DNA of 43,190 bases, from UHGV virus genome UHGV-0294267; one strand, given 5' to 3'. Positions 4,588 to 43,020 of this stretch are shown one piece after another. Below the pieces are notes generated by a model, which did not search any database, was not told the DNA's origin, and saw only the letters and a list, made by a program, of their open reading frames with translations. How positions within the stretch are numbered: position 1 is the stretch's first letter; every line of letters begins with the position of its first letter. Position numbers and translations under genes: made by a program. The stretch comes from a virus.

Positions 4588-4911
4588 TTAAAACGGTACG
4601 TCGCTTTCTTCAATCGGAGAGTGATCGATGCACAGCAGCTGCTGAATCTGGTCTTCAATAACACCCAATTCCTTCTTTGCTTCGGCAGAGATTTTCTCTT
4701 TCTTCGCGCGAAGGGCATTAACCTGCATACCAATAATGTCGATTGGCTCTAAAGCCGGAATAGGAACCTCTACCGTTTTGGTAGTAACGAGGACATACAG
4801 ATCAGGGTATTGCTGTGACATGTCACAGGTGAATGAGTGATAAGACGTTGGTAGATATGGGTTCGTTGTGGCCATAACGTAAACAGTTACGGGGATGGTA
4901 AGCGCTTCCAT
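4588..4911 (-). CDS. hypothetical early protein (107 aa) with an SSB-like C-terminal tail (..IEESDVPF)
   Basis: ATG at 4911 with an AAGGAG ribosome-binding site 6 nt upstream. It is the first gene of the leftward early operon. The C-terminus ends in an acidic stretch plus PF, like the protein-interaction tails of SSBs. Confidence 0.55.
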   Translation of the reverse strand: MEALTIPVTVYVMATTNPYLPTSYHSFTCDMSQQYPDLYVLVTTKTVEVPIPALEPIDIIGMQVNALRAKKEKISAEAKKELGVIEDQIQQLLCIDHSPIEESDVPF

Positions 4912-5535: not shown

Positions 5536-6000
5536 TTATTGCTTTCTTGCTGCGAGTAACTCTTCAAATAAACGGTCAAAACCAACTACTTTATCTTTTA
5601 ATTCAGATAGATGCCTTTCTTTTTCACTTTGAGGAAGTCTTTCATACAGCTCGATGAGTTCGGCTTCTTCTGGCTTCAACAGACGCCACCCTGCTGACGA
5701 ATAATCATCAACGTGTGTACCCGATTTTCGAACATAGTTCATCAGTTCGGCCAGATCGGGACGTAGGTCCTCAGGTTTTACTCCCAGCAAAGCTGCGAAC
5801 TTTAGAGCGGCGTCGGTGTTTAGCGGAATATTACCGTTCAGATAGTGGCTGACAGTAGCCTGTGTACTGAAGCCAAGTGCATCCGCCGCCTTTTCTTGTG
5901 TAAGGCGTAAAGTTACTTTTTTTTCGTTCCAGATGTCCCGGAGACGTTGAGCGGTTTCTGATTCATCCGCGTCGAGTGTTTTTTTTCTCATGGCGTCCAT
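5536..6000 (-). CDS. prophage repressor, HTH (XRE/cI-like) DNA-binding domain, no S24 peptidase domain
   Basis: 154 aa. An N-terminal helix-turn-helix (LTQEKAADALGFSTQATVSHYLNG) is present. It is divergent from a cro-like gene across a 99-bp promoter region. At 154 aa it is too short to hold a LexA/cI-type autocleavage domain. An alternative start is the ATG at 5991. Confidence 0.75.
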   Translation of the reverse strand: MDAMRKKTLDADESETAQRLRDIWNEKKVTLRLTQEKAADALGFSTQATVSHYLNGNIPLNTDAALKFAALLGVKPEDLRPDLAELMNYVRKSGTHVDDYSSAGWRLLKPEEAELIELYERLPQSEKERHLSELKDKVVGFDRLFEELLAARKQ

Positions 6001-6099: not shown

Positions 6100-6333
6100 A
6101 TGGATCTTAAAACCTATCTAAAGACCTCTGGCGTTCGCCAGCAGGATTTCGCTCAAGTCGTTGGCGAGACGCAGGGCTATGTCAGTCGCGTTGCATCAGG
6201 AAAATGCCTGCTTGGTGCTGCAACTGCATTGAAATGGGCCGCTGCAACTGGCTATCAAGTAACACCGCATGATCTACTCCCCAATATTTACCGAAAACCA
6301 ACTGACGGACTGCCGGAACAGAATGCAGCTTAA
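6100..6333 (+). CDS. Cro-like HTH regulator
   Basis: 77-aa ORF divergent from the repressor, with a strong ribosome-binding site and an HTH (RQQDFAQVVGETQGYVSRVASG). Confidence 0.7.
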   Translation: MDLKTYLKTSGVRQQDFAQVVGETQGYVSRVASGKCLLGAATALKWAAATGYQVTPHDLLPNIYRKPTDGLPEQNAA

Positions 6334-6395: not shown

Positions 6396-6842
6396 GTGGA
6401 ATACCTCGAAGAACTTAAACGAGAGATCTTTAACTGGGCAGCGGAAAGCGGGCAGGAGCTGGTTGCTATCGAGATAAGCCGCATGTGGTTTCGTCTTGGG
6501 GGTAATACCGGTTCGCTGAAGCTGCACCAGATCGAAGATGCAGATGGAAACGCCGACTGGCGGGCAATCAACAACAACCGCCAACAAATTTTTCGTTGGT
6601 TGCGAGGCGAGACCAAAGCCGCGAGAGCCAAAACTCTGGCGCTGGTCAAAGCGATGGAAGCGGCGCTGCCGGCAGAGCGTTACGCTCGCTTGGGTATGTC
6701 CACCCAGTATTTAATTTGTGTGGCCATTCGTGAGTTTGCCGCGGCGATTATCGCGTTGTTACTCGACGCCAGAGATGGGCCGCAGCAAGTCGCTAGAGCA
6801 TTGCAAGCTATGCGAGAAACACAACGCCTGACCAGCGTTTAA
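6396..6842 (+). CDS. CII-like phage regulatory protein (CP76/YdaT-like family, tentative)
   Basis: 148 aa, GTG start after an AGGAGA site. Its position directly downstream of cro, and motifs such as IFRWLRGETK recalled from CII(CP76)/YdaT-type proteins, support the call. Confidence 0.4.
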   Translation: MEYLEELKREIFNWAAESGQELVAIEISRMWFRLGGNTGSLKLHQIEDADGNADWRAINNNRQQIFRWLRGETKAARAKTLALVKAMEAALPAERYARLGMSTQYLICVAIREFAAAIIALLLDARDGPQQVARALQAMRETQRLTSV

Positions 6843-7086: not shown

Positions 7087-8070
7087 ATGAGTATGACGCT
7101 TATGGCCAAAGCAATGGCAATCAAGACCGGAAACCCGATTCGAAAACTGGTGCTGATCAAACTGGCTGATAACGCCAATGATTCCGGCGAATGCTGGCCG
7201 TCTTACAAACATATTGCGGATCACTGCGAGTGCAGCAAAAGCGCGGTGCGTGACCATATCGATGCGTTAATTTCTATGGGCCTGCTGGTGAAAGAAAACC
7301 GCCCGGGCGTAAAAAACGGGAAGGGTAACGCGTCGAATTTGTACTGTATGAAACTTGATAACCCTATGCCGCCAAAAAGCATAGCCCCTATGCCGTCAAA
7401 AAGCACAGGTATGCCGCCAAAAAGCATAGCCCCTATGCCGTGTGGCGGCACCAGAACCAGTCACTCTTTTGAACCAGTCATAGAACCTATAGATCCCCCT
7501 AACCCCCAGGAGGGGGAAGGCGATGAAAAAATTAATTCTGATGCTAAAAAAGCACTGGAATTTTACAACGAGCAAACCGGTACCCGCTGCCGTGACCTGA
7601 AACCGTTTGTGCTGATGCTGACGCCGACCACCACCCGGGCAGGATACACGCTGGACGAATTGCAGTTAGTTATCCGCTGGGTGCTGGCCACATGGCGCCG
7701 CCGTGGCGATAGCCTGCCGAAGCCTGCGAACATCTGCCGGGTAAACCGCTTTGATGGTTATCTCGCTGACGCTGAAGCATGGGCGGTGACCGAAACCGAT
7801 ATTGATCCGGAAGCCGTTATGAACGGCTACAACGAAATTTTTGCTGACGTTCTGCCTGCTGCTGAACTGGACACCGACCGGCGCCGGATGATCACCCGTC
7901 TTGCCGCCCACATGAAAAACAAAACCACGGGCGCATTTCTGGGTTATTTCGAAAAATTCCGCGCTGACGCCTCCGATTTTTACTTTGGTGAAAATGGCGG
8001 ATGGCGCGCCAGCTTTGACTATCTGATGAAACCAGAAACATTGCGTAAGACCAGGGAGGGCGCTCTATGA
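7087..8070 (+). CDS. replication initiation protein (lambda O-like), containing internal iterons
   Basis: 327 aa. The N-terminal replication-protein HTH region (KLVLIKLADNANDSGECWPSYKHIADHC...) resembles phage replisome-organizer proteins. It lies immediately upstream of the helicase gene, with an overlapping stop/start. Confidence 0.65.
   Translation: MSMTLMAKAMAIKTGNPIRKLVLIKLADNANDSGECWPSYKHIADHCECSKSAVRDHIDALISMGLLVKENRPGVKNGKGNASNLYCMKLDNPMPPKSIAPMPSKSTGMPPKSIAPMPCGGTRTSHSFEPVIEPIDPPNPQEGEGDEKINSDAKKALEFYNEQTGTRCRDLKPFVLMLTPTTTRAGYTLDELQLVIRWVLATWRRRGDSLPKPANICRVNRFDGYLADAEAWAVTETDIDPEAVMNGYNEIFADVLPAAELDTDRRRMITRLAAHMKNKTTGAFLGYFEKFRADASDFYFGENGGWRASFDYLMKPETLRKTREGAL
7364..7442. other. 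candidate origin of replication: four ~23-bp iterons, (C)TATGCCG(C/T)CAAAAAGCA(T/C)AG, inside the O-like gene, followed by an A/T-richer stretch
   Basis: Direct repeats at 7364, 7388, 7410 and 7433 (the last one partial). Each has CTATGC/GCATAG dyad ends. They encode the peptide repeats MPPKSIAPMP. Lambda ori has the same arrangement. Confidence 0.5.
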
Positions 8071-9473
8071 TGCAGATGATGTATTCCACTCAGGAGCTGG
8101 AATGTCTGGTTCTTGGCTGCCTGATGAACGGCGGCGCCACGCCTGATGCCTTTGATGTGATTGCCAGCACGCCGAGCGAGGCTTTCAGCGTCGCATACTA
8201 CAGACAGATTTACGGCGTGATCAAAGCGCAGGCGTTGAGCGGCGGCTTAATTGACATGATGTACATTAGCGAGGCCATCGGCGGACAGGGAACGCTGGCC
8301 AATCTCGCCGATATTTGCAAATTTCCCACATCGATCGTCAATCTCAAAGGCTACGCCAAAAAAATGGTTAAGGCCTGGCGAAGCAGAACCATAGCGCAAT
8401 TACTTCAGGATGGTGCGGATGGTATTCGTGATGCGATAAACCAGGAACAGCGCGATCAGGTTGTCGAAACTGCCGTGGCGCAGCTGCTGGACATGACCGG
8501 CGACACTGGCGACGTTCAGCCGGTACACATGAGCGAATTATTGCCGGTGTACATGGAAACCATGCAGAAGCGCATGGATGGTGAAGAGGGTACCCGCAAC
8601 CTGAAAACCGGGATCGAAGAACTGGACGATGCAACCGGCGGAATCAACCTGCAGGATTTGATTGTCGTCGCCGGGCGTCCGGGCATGGGAAAAACAGAAT
8701 TTGCGCTGAAGATTGTCGATGGTGTTACCGCTGCCGGCGGTGGCGCGTTGATATTCAGTATGGAGATGGCCGCTGCGCAAATCGTAGAACGCTCTCTGGC
8801 GGGTTCTGGCAACATGTCAGTGTCACGCCTGCGTAATCCCCTCGATATGCAGGACGAGGACTGGGCGCGCTTTACAGCGGCCATGGAGACCATGAACGGG
8901 CGCGATATCTGGATCGTTGATGCTACCGATCTGACGATTGAGCAAATCCGCGCCGTTGCCGAAACGCATAAGCGCCGGTATCCGCATCTGGCAATGATCG
9001 TTGTCGATTACCTTGGCCTGATTAAAAAACCGAAGGCAGAGCGTAACGACCTCGCGATCGCCCACATATCCCGAAACCTAAAAACTATGGCTATGCGTCT
9101 GCATACGCCGACGTTCGCGCTAAGCCAGCTTTCCCGCGCCGTGGATTCCCGCCCGGCTACCCAGCGCCGCCCGGTCATGTCAGATCTGCGCGATTCCGGT
9201 TCTATTGAGCAGGACGCCGACAGCATTATGTTTCTGTATCGCGATGAGGTTTACAACCCGGAAAGCCCGGCGGCTGGCGTCGCTGAAATTATCCTGGGTA
9301 AAAGCCGCTTCAGTGCCGCAGGCGCAATTATTTATCAGGAATTTAAAAACGGACACTTTCTGTCAATGGATCAGCATGTTGGCAAAGAGAAAACACGTAT
9401 CCAACTGGAGGCCGCGAAACCCCGGAAACAACCCCGTAAATACTCTGAGAGATTCAATACCGATGCATTTTAA
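8067..9473 (+). CDS. replicative DNA helicase, DnaB family
   Basis: 468 aa with Walker A (GRPGMGKT) and the DnaB-type motifs (VDYLGLIK, SQLSR, DLRDSGSIEQDAD). Confidence 0.9.
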   Translation: MMQMMYSTQELECLVLGCLMNGGATPDAFDVIASTPSEAFSVAYYRQIYGVIKAQALSGGLIDMMYISEAIGGQGTLANLADICKFPTSIVNLKGYAKKMVKAWRSRTIAQLLQDGADGIRDAINQEQRDQVVETAVAQLLDMTGDTGDVQPVHMSELLPVYMETMQKRMDGEEGTRNLKTGIEELDDATGGINLQDLIVVAGRPGMGKTEFALKIVDGVTAAGGGALIFSMEMAAAQIVERSLAGSGNMSVSRLRNPLDMQDEDWARFTAAMETMNGRDIWIVDATDLTIEQIRAVAETHKRRYPHLAMIVVDYLGLIKKPKAERNDLAIAHISRNLKTMAMRLHTPTFALSQLSRAVDSRPATQRRPVMSDLRDSGSIEQDADSIMFLYRDEVYNPESPAAGVAEIILGKSRFSAAGAIIYQEFKNGHFLSMDQHVGKEKTRIQLEAAKPRKQPRKYSERFNTDAF

Positions 9474-10418: not shown

Positions 10419-10567
10419 AAAAGCTTTTTAAACAGGGTTTTGAAAATTACAGCGGGCGTACGTTGCGAGTTTTCGCCCTGACATTGAATTTTGTTGTGTT
10501 GTTTATCGTGATCGCGGCGCTGTCAGCCTTAGGTATCTGCATGGTTAACGTCTGGGTGAATCAATGA
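10415..10567 (+). CDS. small single-pass membrane protein (50 aa), not in the ORF track
   Basis: My own translation is MKKLFKQGFENYSGRTLRVFALTLNFVVLFIVIAALSALGICMVNVWVNQ. Its ATG overlaps the upstream stop (ATGA) and its stop overlaps the methylase ATG (ATGA), so the three genes appear translationally coupled. Confidence 0.35.
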   Translation: MKKLFKQGFENYSGRTLRVFALTLNFVVLFIVIAALSALGICMVNVWVNQ

Positions 10568-11154
10568 GCAAAAAATACACTTTGATTTATGCGGATCCGC
10601 CCTGGACGTACCGCGATAAAGCCAAAGATGGCGAGCGTGGCGCCGGGCATAAATACCAGACCATGACTGTGCTCGATATCTGCCGTCTCCCGGTCTGGGA
10701 ACTGGCCGCTGAAAACTGCCTGCTGGCTATGTGGTGGGTACCGACTCAGCCACTGGAGGCGTTGCGAGTAGTCGAGGCGTGGGGGTTCCGCCTGATGACC
10801 ATGAAAGGCTTTACGTGGAACAAATGCTACAGCCGGCAGACCGACAAACTGGCCATTGGAATGGGCCATATGACCAGGGCGAACAGTGAGGATTGCCTTT
10901 TCGCTGTGCAGGGGAAATTACCCGCCCGGCTGGATGCCGGGATCGTTCAGTCATTCACGGCCCCGCGTCTGGAGCATTCGCGCAAACCGGATATCGTGCG
11001 CGAAAAGCTGGTGCAGCTGCTGGGGGATGTACCGCGTATTGAGTTATTCGCCCGCCAGTCGTCGCATGGTTTCGACGTCTGGGGAAACCAGTGTGAATCG
11101 CCAGCGGTGGCGCTGTTGCCGGCCATTGCAGAATATATCGGGGAGGTAGCATAG
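10564..11154 (+). CDS. DNA N6-adenine methyltransferase, MT-A70 family
   Basis: 196 aa with the catalytic DPPW motif (LIYADPPWTY) near the N-terminus, typical of phage Dam-like MT-A70 enzymes. Confidence 0.8.
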   Translation: MSKKYTLIYADPPWTYRDKAKDGERGAGHKYQTMTVLDICRLPVWELAAENCLLAMWWVPTQPLEALRVVEAWGFRLMTMKGFTWNKCYSRQTDKLAIGMGHMTRANSEDCLFAVQGKLPARLDAGIVQSFTAPRLEHSRKPDIVREKLVQLLGDVPRIELFARQSSHGFDVWGNQCESPAVALLPAIAEYIGEVA

Positions 11155-11439
11155 ATGGCCGACCAAACCATTCTCGATTTGAAAGACGCTCTACTTGAAA
11201 GCGCATACCGTCGATTATTGGAACTGGAGAAATTGCTATTGCCTGATGTCTCTGAAACCGTATGGCCCGTTGAAGTTAGCATGGTTTTTTCTCAGATAGA
11301 AAACGCCGGGGATCTCCCGGCGCACCACCAGCGCCGCCTGCAGCACCATATCAACCGGATGTGGCTGGAAAAAATGCCGGTACCGTCAATTATCGCCGCG
11401 GCTCGTTCGCTGGCCAGTGCCATGGAGAAATACGCGTGA
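11155..11439 (+). CDS. hypothetical protein (94 aa)
   Basis: ORF lying between the two methyltransferase genes. Its stop overlaps the GTG of the next gene (GTGA). Confidence 0.45.
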   Translation: MADQTILDLKDALLESAYRRLLELEKLLLPDVSETVWPVEVSMVFSQIENAGDLPAHHQRRLQHHINRMWLEKMPVPSIIAAARSLASAMEKYA

Positions 11440-13625
11440 GAGAGAGCGAAATCATCGTTGATAACTTTGCTGGTGGCGGCGGAGCCTCAACGGGCATCGA
11501 ATTGGCGATAGGGCGCAGTGTGGATATTGCGATTAACCATGACCCGAACGCTGTCGCGATGCACACTACTAATCACCCCGACACGCTGCATTACTGCGAG
11601 TCGGTTTATTCAGTTCGCCCGAAAGTTGCGACCGCCGGCCGCCGGGTTGGGCTGGCATGGTTTAGTCCTGATTGCCGCCACTTCTCAAAAGCTAAGGGTG
11701 CAAAACCCGTTGAAAAAGCGATTCGTGGGCTGGCGTGGGTAACACTTCGCTGGGGGCTGGATGTTGACCCTCGGGTAATGATGCTGGAAAACGTCGAAGA
11801 GTTTAAAACATGGGGGCCGCTGCTTGCGGCTGAAATGCGACCAGATCCAGACCGCGTCGGTGAAACATTCCGGGCATTTGTAGGCATGCTGACAACCGGT
11901 ATCCCGGCGAACCATCCGGCGCTGGCAGAATGCTGCGAATTTCTGAACATTTCGCTTGATAGCGAAGATGCCGCACGGCTGGTAAAAGGGCTGGGATACG
12001 TCGTTGAGTATCGAGAACTGCGCGCTTGCGACTACGGCGCACCGACGATTAGAAAACGATTCTTCATGGTCATGCGCCGCGACGGTAAGCCGATAGTATG
12101 GCCGGAAGCCACTCATGGCGATCCGAAATCACCATCGGTGCTGGCTGGCAAACTGGCACCGTGGCGTACAGCTGCGGAATGTATCGACTGGTCCATTCCC
12201 GCGCCATCGATATTTGACCGGAGAAAGCCGCTGGCGGTGAACACGCTCAAACGTATTGCCCGCGGCATCCAACGGTTCGTTATCGACAGTGCAGATCCGT
12301 TCATTGTGAAATGCAACCACACAACCACCCGTGGGAAATACGACTGTTTCCGGGGACAGGCGCTGGGGGATCCGCTGCAGACGATTACCAAAACCCACGG
12401 ATTTGGGCTGGCGGTACCGCATCTGACAAAATTCCGCACCGGTGCAACCGGGCAGCCAGTCACCGAGCCGGTACCAACAGTGACTGCTGGTACGTCAAAA
12501 CGCCCGGGCGGGAATGGTCACGCCCTCGGTATCGTTGAAGCTGAGCTGGCACCGTTCCTGGCCGGAAATGGCGGCAGCGAGTATCAGGCGAAGCCACGGC
12601 CACTGGATAAACCAGCACATACCATCCTGAAAGAGTCCCGCGCCTGTATGGTCACACCATACATTGCGAGGATTGGGCAGACGGGATTCGGCGGTGACCG
12701 TATGTCTTATGACGCAAAAAAACCTCTTACAACAGTTACAAGCAAAAATGAACATTTGTTACTGACACCAATCATTGCGCGCCAGTTTGGTGGCAGCATT
12801 GGCCACCGGGCGGACGAGCCCAGCGCGACGATCACCGCGGGCGGTGGCGGTAAATCGCAGCTGGTGGTGCCAACGTTGATTCAAACCGGATATAGCGAAA
12901 GGCCCGGGCAGGCTCCGCGTGTGCCTGGGCTTAATAAACCGCTGGGTACTGTAGTTGCTGGTGGCGGTAAACATGCGGTCGTTGGCGCATTTCTGGCGAA
13001 ACACTACGGCGGGAACTATTCGGGCCCAGGAGTAGGGTTGGACGAGCCAGCACACTCAGTGACTACGGTTGATCATCATGCGGTAGTTGCGGCGCATCTC
13101 ATGGTGAACAATACCGGGCATCCAGGCGGATCCGTTGAATCACCTGCGCATACGGTTACGACTGGCAATCACCACGCCGTTGTCGCCTCCCACCTGGTTA
13201 AGCTGCGCGGTACTTGCCGTGACGGACAGCGAACTGATGCGCCGATGCCGACTATTACCGCTGGTGGTCAGCACGTCGGGGAAGTTGATACCACTCTCGC
13301 TGTTGAGCATTACGACGAGCAGCGCGCGCAACAGGTGTTAGCATTCCTGAAAGAGTATTGCGGAGCCGATAGCACCGGGCTAGTGGAAATCGCCGGGGTA
13401 ACTTATCGCATCGTTGATATTGGCATGCGCATGCTGCAGCCGCACGAGCTTTACCGGGCGCAGGGCTTCCCTGAGTGGTACATCATTGACCAGGATTACC
13501 GCGGCGTGAAGTATGCGAAGGATAAGCAGGTCGCGCGATGTGGCAACGCTGTTCCGCCGCCGTTCGCGGAAGCACTGGTAAGGGCAAATCTGCCAGAAAT
13601 GTGCCAGGCACGGGAGGCCGCATAA
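11436..13625 (+). CDS. DNA (cytosine-5)-methyltransferase with a long repeat-containing variable region
   Basis: Motif I is DNFAGGGGASTG, motif IV is SPDCRHFS (PC motif) and motif VI is ENVEEF. The GTG at 11436 is preferred because it overlaps the upstream stop by 4 nt and places motif I at residues 8-16. The track's longer start is 11361. The variable region holds repeats such as PAHSVTTVDHHAVVAAHL, PAHTVTTGNHHAVVASHL, PLGTVVAGGGKHAVVGAFL and PSATITAGGGG. Confidence 0.8.
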   Translation: MRESEIIVDNFAGGGGASTGIELAIGRSVDIAINHDPNAVAMHTTNHPDTLHYCESVYSVRPKVATAGRRVGLAWFSPDCRHFSKAKGAKPVEKAIRGLAWVTLRWGLDVDPRVMMLENVEEFKTWGPLLAAEMRPDPDRVGETFRAFVGMLTTGIPANHPALAECCEFLNISLDSEDAARLVKGLGYVVEYRELRACDYGAPTIRKRFFMVMRRDGKPIVWPEATHGDPKSPSVLAGKLAPWRTAAECIDWSIPAPSIFDRRKPLAVNTLKRIARGIQRFVIDSADPFIVKCNHTTTRGKYDCFRGQALGDPLQTITKTHGFGLAVPHLTKFRTGATGQPVTEPVPTVTAGTSKRPGGNGHALGIVEAELAPFLAGNGGSEYQAKPRPLDKPAHTILKESRACMVTPYIARIGQTGFGGDRMSYDAKKPLTTVTSKNEHLLLTPIIARQFGGSIGHRADEPSATITAGGGGKSQLVVPTLIQTGYSERPGQAPRVPGLNKPLGTVVAGGGKHAVVGAFLAKHYGGNYSGPGVGLDEPAHSVTTVDHHAVVAAHLMVNNTGHPGGSVESPAHTVTTGNHHAVVASHLVKLRGTCRDGQRTDAPMPTITAGGQHVGEVDTTLAVEHYDEQRAQQVLAFLKEYCGADSTGLVEIAGVTYRIVDIGMRMLQPHELYRAQGFPEWYIIDQDYRGVKYAKDKQVARCGNAVPPPFAEALVRANLPEMCQAREAA

Positions 13626-13963: not shown

Positions 13964-13988
13964 CGAACAACCATACCAGATAAAACAG

Positions 13989-14017
13989 AACCGTCAGAAA
14001 TGGCGGTTTTCTTTTGA
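13989..14017 (+). terminator. weak candidate rho-independent terminator
   Basis: Short hairpin AACCG-N10-CGGTT followed by TTCTTTTG. The stem is only 5 bp. Confidence 0.25.
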
Positions 14018-14105
14018 ATTCAATCGGATATTTTGAGGTTTATTGTTGATTTTTAACGATTCGTGCTCTTAAAAATTTGCGCTCACTGTCAGTTGATAGT
14101 ATATA

Positions 14106-14125
14106 TACTGTGAATTTATACAGTA
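14106..14125. promoter_or_regulatory. LexA (SOS) box TACTGTGAATTTATACAGTA overlapping a sigma70-like promoter (TTGATA at 14093-14098)
   Basis: It matches the enterobacterial consensus TACTG(TA)5CAGTA with CTGT-N8-ACAG. The box covers the predicted -10 region. A small gene follows 20 nt downstream. Confidence 0.65.
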
Positions 14126-14145
14126 TCGCCAGCGAGGGAGAGGTA

Positions 14146-14337
14146 GTGATTGATAAGAAAGATGCAGGAGACCTTCTCCCCGATGATGGTGATGTGCTGA
14201 TAACATGTGAAAAGGGCAAAATTAAGAAGACCAGAATTGTCCATTCCGATGAGCACGTAGCGACACTTAACGCGTTGTTTGAATTAGCTAAATTGACGGG
14301 TTATACCATTATCAAACCAGACGGCAATATGCTATAA
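14146..14337 (+). CDS. small acidic protein (63 aa) under LexA control, a candidate SOS-induced antirepressor or other SOS effector
   Basis: GTG at 14146 after the ribosome-binding site GAGGGAGAGG. The ORF is AT-rich compared with its neighbours. The track's upstream extension to 14077 would read through the promoter and LexA box and is rejected. Confidence 0.45.
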   Translation: MIDKKDAGDLLPDDGDVLITCEKGKIKKTRIVHSDEHVATLNALFELAKLTGYTIIKPDGNML

Positions 14338-14405
14338 TTACCCCGTTGGCCTGAACACCCGACACAGTATACTTCTGAACAATTGCTGCGCTAAAGGGGA
14401 ACCCA

Positions 14406-14999
14406 ATGGCGCAGTATTCATTTATAAAATCAGATGGCGATGTGTTAATCCCTGCATCGCCCGACGCCCGCGAGTTTGTGAAGAAAATTCGCTCGGGCGC
14501 TGTTCTGTATTCCGATTTTAAGCAGGCGCGAAACCCTGCATTTCACCGCAAGTTTTTCTCTCTCCTCAATCTCGGTTTTGACTACTGGCAGCCATCCGGC
14601 GGTGCTATTTCCCCTGCAGATAAAAAACTGGTGCATGGTTACGTGCAGCTGGTGGCCCACTATGCCGGGCATGCTGACACATTGCAGGAACTGGCGGACC
14701 AGTATTTGCGCGATGAAGCAGAAAAACGCGCCGGGAATATCAGTGCGGTTAAATCGTTTGAAGCGTTCCGTTCCTGGGTAACTATCGAAGCCGGTTTTTA
14801 TACCGAATACCAGATGCCTGATGGCACCACTCGTAAGGAACCCAAATCCATATCGTTCGCAAAAATGGACGATCTCGAATTCTCCCAGCTTTATAAGTCA
14901 GTCCTCGACGTTCTCTGGAACTTCATTCTGTTCCGCACCTTCCCGACGCAGCAGGCGGCAGAAAACGCAGCCTCTCAGCTTTTCAGTTATGCGGCCTGA
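14406..14999 (+). CDS. hypothetical nin-region protein (197 aa), possibly DUF1367-like
   Basis: ORF with an AAAGGGGA ribosome-binding site. The family assignment rests on memory only. Confidence 0.4.
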   Translation: MAQYSFIKSDGDVLIPASPDAREFVKKIRSGAVLYSDFKQARNPAFHRKFFSLLNLGFDYWQPSGGAISPADKKLVHGYVQLVAHYAGHADTLQELADQYLRDEAEKRAGNISAVKSFEAFRSWVTIEAGFYTEYQMPDGTTRKEPKSISFAKMDDLEFSQLYKSVLDVLWNFILFRTFPTQQAAENAASQLFSYAA

Positions 15000-15009
15000 G
15001 GCGGACACT

Positions 15010-15486
15010 ATGAAATTCAATATTCGCTCTCATATCGTCGAGATGGATGAGGCCGACGCCTTGATCTTTGTGGGTTACCCCATCCACATCGGCTCGAATG
15101 GTTATGCAAAAGTCACCGGCTGGCATTTTGGCAAGGAAAGATACCTTCATCGCGTCATCATGAATGCGAGGCCTCATGATGTTGTAGATCACATTGATGG
15201 TAATAAGCTCAACTGCACCCGCTCAAATCTGAGGATCTGCACACAGGCCGACAATACCAAAAATGTGGGCTTGAGGAGTGACAATAGCTCAGGAATTCCG
15301 GGAGTTTACTGGGTATCCACTCGCCTCAAATGGGCGGCGCAAATTTCAGTTGATGGCAGGACCGTTAGTTTAGGCCGCTTTGATGAAATTGCCGATGCTA
15401 TCAATGCCCGCCGGAAAGCAGAAGATTTGTATTACGGGGAGTTTGCAGCCAGCAAGGGGGTGCTTTGTGAAAAAGCGCGCCAGTAA
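15010..15486 (+). CDS. HNH homing endonuclease with an AP2-type DNA-binding domain
   Basis: ATG at 15010 after GAGG. The HNH motif is HIDGNKLNCTRSNLRICTQADNTKN. An AP2-like segment (SGIPGVYWVSTRLKWAAQISVDGRTVSLGRFDEIADAINARRKAE) is present. The track's longer ORF from 14821 overlaps the previous gene and is rejected. Confidence 0.75.
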   Translation: MKFNIRSHIVEMDEADALIFVGYPIHIGSNGYAKVTGWHFGKERYLHRVIMNARPHDVVDHIDGNKLNCTRSNLRICTQADNTKNVGLRSDNSSGIPGVYWVSTRLKWAAQISVDGRTVSLGRFDEIADAINARRKAEDLYYGEFAASKGVLCEKARQ

Positions 15487-42471: not shown

Positions 42472-43020
42472 ATGCTGATTGGCTACGCGCGGGTGTCTAC
42501 CGGCGATCAAAACCTCGATTTACAGAAAAACGCGCTGGTTCGCGCAGAATGTGAACTAATTTTCGAAGACACCGCCAGCGGTAAGAATGCTAAAAGGCCT
42601 GGATTACGGAAAGCGATCCGCCGTCTTCGGCCTGGTGATTCGCTGGTGGTCTGGAAACTGGATCGCCTCGGTCGCAGTGTCCGTGACCTCATAACGTTGG
42701 TATCTGAATTACAGGAGAGGGGAATTCATTTTCGCAGCTTGACCGACTCGATCGATACTTCGACACCTGCCGGCCGATTCTTCTTTCATGTCATGAGCGC
42801 GTTAGCTGAAATGGAGCGCGAATTGATAGTGGAGCGTACCCGCGCCGGTTTAGCAGCGGCGAGAGAGCAGGGCCGCATCGGTGGCCGCCGCCGGATAATG
42901 ACCACCGAAGTTGTGGAGCGTTGCCGGCGCATGCTGGAGAACGGCGCAACCCGGCAGCAGGTAGCAGATGTGATCGGGGTAGGGGTGAAAACGATTTATA
43001 AATATTTCCCTATAGGTTAA
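42472..43020 (+). CDS. serine recombinase, DNA invertase of the Hin/Gin/Cin/Pin family
   Basis: 182 aa. The N-terminus MLIGYARVSTGDQNLDLQKNAL...VVWKLDRLGRS...FRSLTDSIDTSTPAGRFFFHVMSALAEMERELIVERT is near-identical in pattern to Gin and Hin. A C-terminal HTH is present. Confidence 0.9.
   Translation: MLIGYARVSTGDQNLDLQKNALVRAECELIFEDTASGKNAKRPGLRKAIRRLRPGDSLVVWKLDRLGRSVRDLITLVSELQERGIHFRSLTDSIDTSTPAGRFFFHVMSALAEMERELIVERTRAGLAAAREQGRIGGRRRIMTTEVVERCRRMLENGATRQQVADVIGVGVKTIYKYFPIG

Follow-up and report, generated by a model that had tools for sequence, protein, structure and literature searches.

How a prophage might be induced by DNA damage when its repressor carries no domain for self-cleavage is the question raised by the virus genome UHGV-0294267, a stretch of 43,190 nucleotides (nt) that is referred to in its whole length as the window. 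On the plus strand of this DNA, a short open reading frame (ORF) of 63 amino acids (aa) stands behind a LexA (SOS) box, and a first-pass annotation had singled out the ORF as a candidate for a LexA-controlled antirepressor. That candidacy was supported by (i) the homology of the protein to the antirepressors GfoA and Rem; (ii) the position of the gene in the operon slot known from the Gifsy prophages; (iii) the conservation of the LexA box among relatives; and (iv) the class of short repressor that the window encodes. Because of these four lines of evidence, we consider it highly probable that the segment at 14077-14337 is an SOS-induction module and that its 63-aa product would free the prophage by binding the 154-aa repressor.

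Homology of the 63-aa protein to GfoA and Rem

Two small antirepressors of demonstrated activity served as reference points. The gfoA gene with its LexA-controlled promoter is both needed and sufficient for Gifsy-1 to be induced (PMC3121763; PMC5322425), and Rem of Escherichia coli relieves the DicA repression of dicBp 165-fold (PMC10448788). The GfoA sequence was recovered from Salmonella prophage contigs by means of the published gfoA primers pp866 and pp867. The annealing part of the forward primer was found to match 59 viral contigs; in contig L084 it sits at the beginning of an 82-aa ORF that opens with TTG and is flanked by a LexA-box/dinI unit on one side and an irsA homologue on the other. 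The reverse primer matches this ORF at its 3′ end, and by these exact matches and its position between dinI and irsA the ORF was identified as GfoA. When compared with GfoA, an alignment of 41 family sequences gave an hhalign probability of 96.2% (E-value 2e-9), and the window protein itself was aligned by BLASTP with an E-value of 1e-6 (31% identity over 52 aa). The same family alignment matched E. coli Rem with a probability of 93% (E-value 3.5e-7). On the basis of the hhalign and BLASTP matches to GfoA and the hhalign match to Rem, the window protein is assigned by sequence to the GfoA/Rem family. With GftA, the antirepressor of Gifsy-2, no BLASTP alignment was obtained, and hhalign was weak, with a probability of 2% for a narrow alignment and 24% (E-value 8.5e-4) for a broad one; the weak profile alignment kept a consistent register of a beta-hairpin with a central Gly, an Arg, an acidic pair, and a helix. 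The relation of GfoA and GfhA to GftA is itself only distant (PMC3121763). The GftA comparison by itself had suggested another family occupying this slot, a reading that was dropped once GfoA had been recovered by its primers. Homology to Tum of coliphage 186 was also rejected, as hhalign gave a probability of 0.4% and no DinI-like half was detected by Pfam or phmmer. Thus, of the earlier comparison of the small gene to antirepressors of the Gifsy, Tum, and N15 type, the Gifsy part stands, with Gifsy-1 GfoA as a homologue, while Tum is unrelated and GftA is at best weakly related.

The ORF spans 14146-14337 on the plus strand (stop codon included), starts with GTG, and is preceded at 14136-14143 by a sequence read as a Shine-Dalgarno element, GGGAGAGG, whose G-rich character is kept in relatives. 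The median ratio of nonsynonymous to synonymous substitution rates (dN/dS) among the relatives was 0.19, which argues that the ORF is a real, constrained gene under purifying selection. It had been described as an acidic ORF of foreign base composition; the length of 63 aa and the composition were upheld (GC content 41.8% compared with 51.8% for the window, in a local region of 39-42%), while the acidity proved only mild (isoelectric point 5.5). Relatives begin with ATG, GTG, or TTG at the position equivalent to 14146, and since they share this start codon position, 63 aa, which is also the NCBI call, is taken as the credible product. Many database calls are of 86-107 aa, beginning from the TTG at 14077 or farther 5′ and crossing the promoter and LexA box; these longer starts are probably miscalled. 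The 63-aa protein matches phrog_340 (E-value 3e-22), a family listed in PHROGs as of unknown function, and more weakly phrog_4792, labeled 'anti-repressor'. No match was found in Pfam or NCBIfam, including the DinI, P22_AR_N, KilA-N, Bro-N, and ANT families. A close homologue (P0016) is labeled with Pfam PF27490.1, and the domain family may already have an entry in a newer Pfam release. An AlphaFold (AF2) model built with the 41-sequence alignment reached a mean predicted local distance difference test score (pLDDT) of 87 and shows a short helix at the N terminus, then a beta-hairpin (residues 17-22 and 25-31), followed by a helix at residues 41-50; an earlier model made from 13 close homologues was poor (pLDDT 62).

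When 1.8 billion representative proteins were searched by profile, 60 family matches were obtained, most of them 55-75 aa in length. In addition to these small proteins, the GfoA/Rem-like domain was found (i) at the C-terminal end of proteins of the KilA-N, P22_AR_N, or Rha type (P0074, P0085, and P0090); (ii) in tandem duplication within single polypeptides (P0087, P0089, and P0101); and (iii) fused to ORF6N in E. coli-type prophages (L072 2919-3752, L074 2689-3480, and L080 1744-2577). In the E. coli-type prophages, about 7 kb separates a stand-alone copy with a LexA box from a second copy fused to ORF6N. The fusion proteins are usually annotated 'antirepressor', and their architectures agree with the proposed function, if not as independent evidence.

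The LexA box, its promoter, and gene order in relatives

The sequence TACTGTGAATTTATACAGTA at 14106-14125 on the plus strand is a LexA box that is perfect in both half-sites, and the view of it as a near-perfect SOS box lying over a promoter was confirmed. It was the sole match to TACTGT-N8-ACAGTA in the window, also when up to two mismatches were allowed, and the exact pattern occurred in none of 100 dinucleotide-preserving shuffles of the window. Two further bare CTGT-N8-ACAG cores were detected at 4813 and 12344. Both are intragenic with G+C-rich spacers and are for these reasons not regarded as credible LexA boxes; the core at 4813-4828 has LexA spacing, with poor flanks on either side of its G+C-rich spacer. 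No second LexA box was found in the window by the pattern scan with up to two mismatches once the bare cores had been judged in this way.

The promoter was assigned by conservation. The first-pass annotation had placed the −35 element at TTGATA (14093-14098), which is not conserved in relatives; the hexamers that are kept are TTGCGC at 14077-14082 and TATATA at 14100-14105, the latter abutting the LexA box. TTGCGN or TTGCAN stands 17 nt 5′ of the −10 element in the otherwise divergent loci L004, L006, L052, L058, L062, and L069, and relatives of the Klebsiella type have TATAAA or TATATA directly 5′ of the box. The promoter is thus probably composed of TTGCGC, a 17-nt spacer, and TATATA. With TATATA as the −10 element, the LexA box would span roughly −6 to +14, and under either hexamer assignment the box is predicted to overlap the core promoter. 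A consensus promoter scan called no promoter over the box, and TATATA was missed because position 6 of the hexamer is A. Boxes in which both half-sites are perfect, such as those of sulA and umuDC, are bound tightly by LexA and induced late. A tight, late-induced box would suit a commitment step such as prophage induction. On the 5′ side, a terminator scan identified a hairpin followed by a T-run of the Rho-independent type at 13987-14017 on the plus strand, which is predicted to close the upstream early operon and to insulate the SOS module. A similar terminator stands 5′ of the box in the relative L062, and all Gifsy prophages have a terminator before the box (Lemire et al., PMC3121763).

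The conservation of the arrangement was surveyed in viral contigs of IMG/VR, which provided 76 related loci, a scan of species-representative genomes having given one locus. An exact CTGT-N8-ACAG was found within 120 nt 5′ of the small gene in 70 of the 75 evaluable loci, compared with 0.25% of control windows (10,595 windows of 120 nt taken from the same loci, many of which are close relatives). Its presence extends to promoters of clearly differing context and to relatives of 40-55% protein identity, among them the E. coli phage vB_EcoM-705R4, and by this survey the box is a family trait. Five loci were exceptions. In L062 the box, TACTGTATGAATGTACAGTT, stands 5′ of an interposed dinI gene; in L068 the core has one mismatch; and L079, L081, and L082 have no box and lie near S24-type proteins, namely a 237-aa lambda-CI-like repressor in L081 and L082 and ORFs matching LexA and UmuD in L079. 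Phage phi467 (L003) is another family member without a LexA box and is embedded in an early operon. These few boxless members resemble FsoA of Fels-1, which the phage repressor, and not LexA, controls (PMC3121763). The L062 locus is ordered as terminator, promoter of the same type, box, dinI homologue, family member, and irsA, which is the full Gifsy operon. A DUF1367 gene was found 66-85 nt 3′ of the small gene in essentially every locus examined, counting the 76 IMG/VR loci and several phage records. One record pair (L004; OM816834 and OM816835, 'Stenotrophomonas phage vB_SmeS_BUCT708/709') carries an 80%-identical copy of the box-antirepressor-DUF1367 module, and its stated Stenotrophomonas host is odd for a module otherwise typical of Klebsiella prophages.

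The short repressor, the proposed mechanism, and its rivals

The presumed target of the small protein is the repressor encoded on the minus strand at 5536-6000, which by Pfam and BLASTP belongs to the GfoR/GtgR/DicA/RacR class. Its earlier description as a 154-aa protein without an S24 domain was borne out, as Pfam gave only the helix-turn-helix (HTH) families HTH_3 and HTH_31 and no match to Peptidase_S24. The C terminus matches the DicA model of NCBIfam. The protein is nearer to RacR than to GfoR: with the repressor of the intact Rac phage Rac-SA53, annotated 'dicA', it shares 55% identity across 91% of its length, and with a GfoR-like 131-aa protein from Salmonella contigs 29% over the full length (BLASTP E-value 2e-9). 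An LLxLFxxLPxxEK motif is common to the window repressor and GtgR. Where the HTH search gave a repressor candidate in a box-bearing locus, a minus-strand HTH repressor of 128-154 aa, related to that of the window, to GtgR, or to both, was present in every case. These short repressors had no match to LexA or UmuD and matched lambda CI only through the HTH end; L057 is exceptional in having, in addition, a 258-aa ORF with a lambda CI match. For the E. coli-type loci this search yielded no repressor candidate.

When the proteins were clustered, antirepressors of a single type (at least 85% identity) were found together with six repressor types. Besides that of the window, five further Klebsiella repressor types (128, 132, 133, 135, and 137 aa) and a GtgR-like type of 144 aa were distinguished. 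Most of the co-occurring repressors are 21-28% identical to the window repressor in the HTH part, compared with 56-70% in the C-terminal 44 residues, which follow the pattern (E/Q)xxLLxLFxxLPxSEK(D/E)RH..EL..KV.GF..LFEELL; the exception is the GtgR-like repressor type of L009, with 37% identity in this module. The module, which corresponds to 5536-5670 (about 44 codons) in the window, was also seen in the repressors of L011, L014, L019, L038, and L046, which are heteroimmune. We infer that the C-terminal module is the surface recognized by the antirepressor. Such a surface would explain the promiscuous pairing, comparable to the action of GfoA on both GfoR and GfhR (PMC3121763). A broader suggestion, which we put forward as tentative and somewhat less likely than its negation, is that the GfoA/Rem fold (a beta-hairpin and helix of about 50 residues) is a portable repressor-binding module that recognizes the LLxLFxxLPxSEKxRH...FxxLFEELL of DicA/RacR/GfoR-type repressors and not their variable HTH; that one LexA-controlled copy could in this way co-induce several heteroimmune Klebsiella prophages; and that the same fold is the active part of the many proteins of the KilA-N, ORF6N, Rha, and P22_AR_N types that carry the label 'antirepressor' with no functional evidence behind it.

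The following sequence of events is proposed. In the undamaged cell, host LexA would occupy the near-consensus box at 14106-14125, over the sigma-70 start site, and the module would be silent. Upon DNA damage, RecA-stimulated self-cleavage of LexA would allow the promoter to fire and the 63-aa antirepressor to be made, with co-transcription of the downstream irsA/DUF1367 homologue being probable. The antirepressor would then bind the 154-aa repressor, which has no autocleavage domain, in a complex expected to be A2B2, and take it off its operators, and the early promoters would be freed for lytic growth. Several points weigh against this proposal. Identity to GfoA is only 31% over the 52 aligned residues, and antirepressor specificity is narrow and unpredictable: GftR is insensitive to GfoA (PMC3121763), and three other predicted E. 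coli antirepressors were without effect on DicA (PMC10448788). For the Klebsiella members, as for the window protein, antirepressor function is read from homology and context. A Foldseek search of the AF2 model against PDB and BFVD returned no significant relative, and structure thus adds no independent support. No one-to-one co-variation of antirepressor and repressor was seen that would prove a cognate pair, and the comparison neither supports nor excludes one. Finally, the window lacks dinI, the first gene of the Gifsy operon; no DinI-like ORF was detected in it by Pfam or by phmmer with DinI seeds, while L062 has one. Since non-polar deletions of dinI leave Gifsy induction unaffected, as do those of irsA (PMC3121763), the absence of dinI is regarded as an architectural and not a functional difference.

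The same lack of co-variation bears on an improbable but better-surviving rival, in which the small protein is a GfoA-family antirepressor that acts in trans on the repressor of another resident prophage, as FsoA does on Gifsy-2, and this prophage is induced by another route or not by SOS. The family has documented cases of cross-talk and of non-cognate targets (PMC3121763), and one antirepressor allele is paired with six repressor types; against this, the window repressor has the C-terminal module of most co-occurring repressors, the L009 type being the exception. The linkage of the module to the irsA/nin region, and not to the immunity region, would also suit a target in trans, yet no alternative inducer of this prophage was found (neither an S24 domain nor a second LexA box, nor a further antirepressor domain in the ORFs scanned), and members that resemble FsoA in not inducing their own prophage are not LexA-controlled, whereas the box of the window family is conserved. 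Less probable still, and distinctly unlikely, is an SOS accessory factor with some other job, such as modulation of RecA or LexA in the manner of DinI, partnership with IrsA/DUF1367, division inhibition, or anti-defense. The small gene is always tightly linked to DUF1367, a family of unknown function, with a conserved RNA hairpin between the two, and the unknown function of phrog_340 in PHROGs would leave room for such a role; nevertheless, the protein has significant homology to two proteins of demonstrated antirepression activity, and among the Gifsy prophages, in which deletions of dinI and irsA had no effect, the small gene alone is sufficient (PMC3121763). A DinI-like function in particular was rejected, as no DinI similarity was detected by Pfam or by phmmer with DinI seeds, and in L062 the family member coexists with a dinI homologue and does not replace it. 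The fallback of the first-pass annotation, in which a division inhibitor, an anti-defense factor, or a similar novel effector would be induced by SOS, is not needed. The last rival, a chance palindrome or decayed site beside a spurious or dead ORF, could appeal to the palindromes that short AT-rich intergenic regions can hold and to the silence of the consensus promoter scan over the box, but it is effectively refuted by conservation, given the absence of the pattern from the shuffles, the core kept in 70 of 75 loci despite their divergent promoters, the dN/dS of 0.19, and the 60 family members among the representative proteins.

Known systems and the surrounding prophage

The antirepressor reading of the module was next compared with characterized systems. 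In the Gifsy prophages, induction requires the small gene located between dinI and irsA, which also suffices for it; the product of this gene binds the short repressor and takes it off the DNA, the repressors remaining uncleaved (PMC3121763). Gifsy-2 (NC_010393) is ordered as terminator, LexA box (TATACTGTGTTTATATACAGTG), dinI, the 73-aa GUG-initiated gftA, and the 200-aa STM1020, and the box, small gene, and DUF1367 gene of the window occupy the same slot; GftA is alike in operon slot and logic but has no significant sequence similarity to the window protein. The likeness to GfoA of Gifsy-1 goes further and includes (i) a homologous small protein with a non-ATG start; (ii) a LexA-box promoter preceded by a terminator and placed well outside the immunity region; (iii) a location directly 5′ of an irsA/DUF1367 homologue; and (iv) a partner that is a short HTH repressor homologous to GfoR. 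The window protein differs in being 63 and not 82 aa, lacking about 20 N-terminal residues of GfoA, and in an identity of about 31%. Rem, from the Qin prophage of E. coli K-12, belongs to the same family and acts on a short repressor of the DicA type, but is 83 aa in length and encoded by a cryptic prophage. No LexA box was seen in the 246 nt 5′ of rem, and the inducing signal of Rem is unknown (PMC10448788). In coliphage 186, according to the record annotation, the LexA box TACTGTATGTTTATACAGTA of promoter p95 similarly drives an antirepressor that blocks the binding of CI to DNA; this protein, Tum, differs in its 146-aa length and DinI-like half, and 186 is a P2-like phage with an unrelated repressor. 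AntC of N15 is counted with Tum as a protein that works alike. The P22 Ant class is related in that the 63-aa domain forms the C-terminal module in proteins headed by KilA-N, P22_AR_N, Rha, or ORF6N domains, while the window protein stands alone without those N-terminal domains and the C-terminal family of P22 Ant is unmatched.

Homologues of gfoR and gtgR, the dinI-irsA region, and GfoA homologues have already been noted in Klebsiella and other enterobacteria (Lemire et al., PMC3121763). To this the present analysis adds the linking of GfoA, Rem, and phrog_340 (a 'hypothetical protein' at NCBI), treated separately so far, as one sequence family, together with the signature that runs from LexA box to irsA and a candidate repressor docking module. 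The Klebsiella module is thus a known mechanism in a new host and not a new mechanism, and what is known of the mechanism is unchanged by the finding. It would provide a concrete SOS-induction route for a common class of Klebsiella prophages, which bears on the phage release caused by fluoroquinolones and mitomycin, and the signature of terminator, LexA-box promoter, small gene, and irsA could guide the annotation of antirepressor-driven prophages in Enterobacteriaceae.

The host of the window was judged to be of the Klebsiella type by the source names on homologues, which are Klebsiella pneumoniae, K. variicola, K. grimontii, K. indica, and Raoultella. A megablast of the region against 5,426 complete E. 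coli genomes gave no near-identical DNA, and because this near-identity search was empty, the element is considered not to be an E. coli one. The window has the appearance of a complete temperate phage, lambdoid/P22-like and of the Klebsiella type. Its genes include an integrase and excisionase (182-1427), Gam-like and exonuclease genes on the minus strand, and an immunity region in which the repressor gene is accompanied by a divergent Cro-like HTH gene (6100-6333, plus strand; Pfam HTH_3, phrog_35) and a CII-like/YdaT-family gene (6396-6842, plus strand; Pfam YdaT_toxin E-value 3e-21, phrog_163 'CII-like transcriptional activator'). A replication initiator and a DnaB-type helicase (7087-9473) were identified from translations only. 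The module lies outside the immunity region and 3′ of the replication genes and of two DNA methyltransferase genes, with the terminator before it and the DUF1367 gene after it (14406-14999, plus strand; Pfam DUF1367 E-value 2e-83), and is followed by packaging, tail-spike, and lysis genes. The DUF1367 gene is a homologue of the irsA-like STM1020 of Gifsy-2, whose 200-aa product is clearly similar to the DUF1367 protein of the window as judged by eye only. No GftA-like ORF was found in the window, and no KilA-N, P22_AR_N, or Rha domain among the window ORFs scanned.

Between the small gene and DUF1367, the promoter scan and covariation analysis identified a compact element at 14333-14363 on the plus strand, composed of a TATAAT that overlaps the small-gene stop codon and a hairpin with stems at 14345-14349 and 14359-14363 and the loop CCUGAACAC. 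The TATAAT is part of a promoter-like match, TTATCA-18-TATAAT. Among 13 diverse sequences from Klebsiella, E. coli, and Salmonella, the 5-bp stem was paired in 100% of cells, compensatory changes were present in three of the five stem pairs, and the loop was nearly invariant (YUGAACA). The element was detected at the same position in L001, L004, L005, L058-L067, L083, and L107. An Rfam scan of the window gave no match, and the element could be an irsA promoter, a processing site, or a protein-binding site. Accessory genes around the module (spans 10564-13625, 14821-15486, and 42472-43020) include an MT-A70 methyltransferase, a 754-aa C5-cytosine methyltransferase, and an HNH/AP2 endonuclease ORF that overlaps the end of DUF1367.

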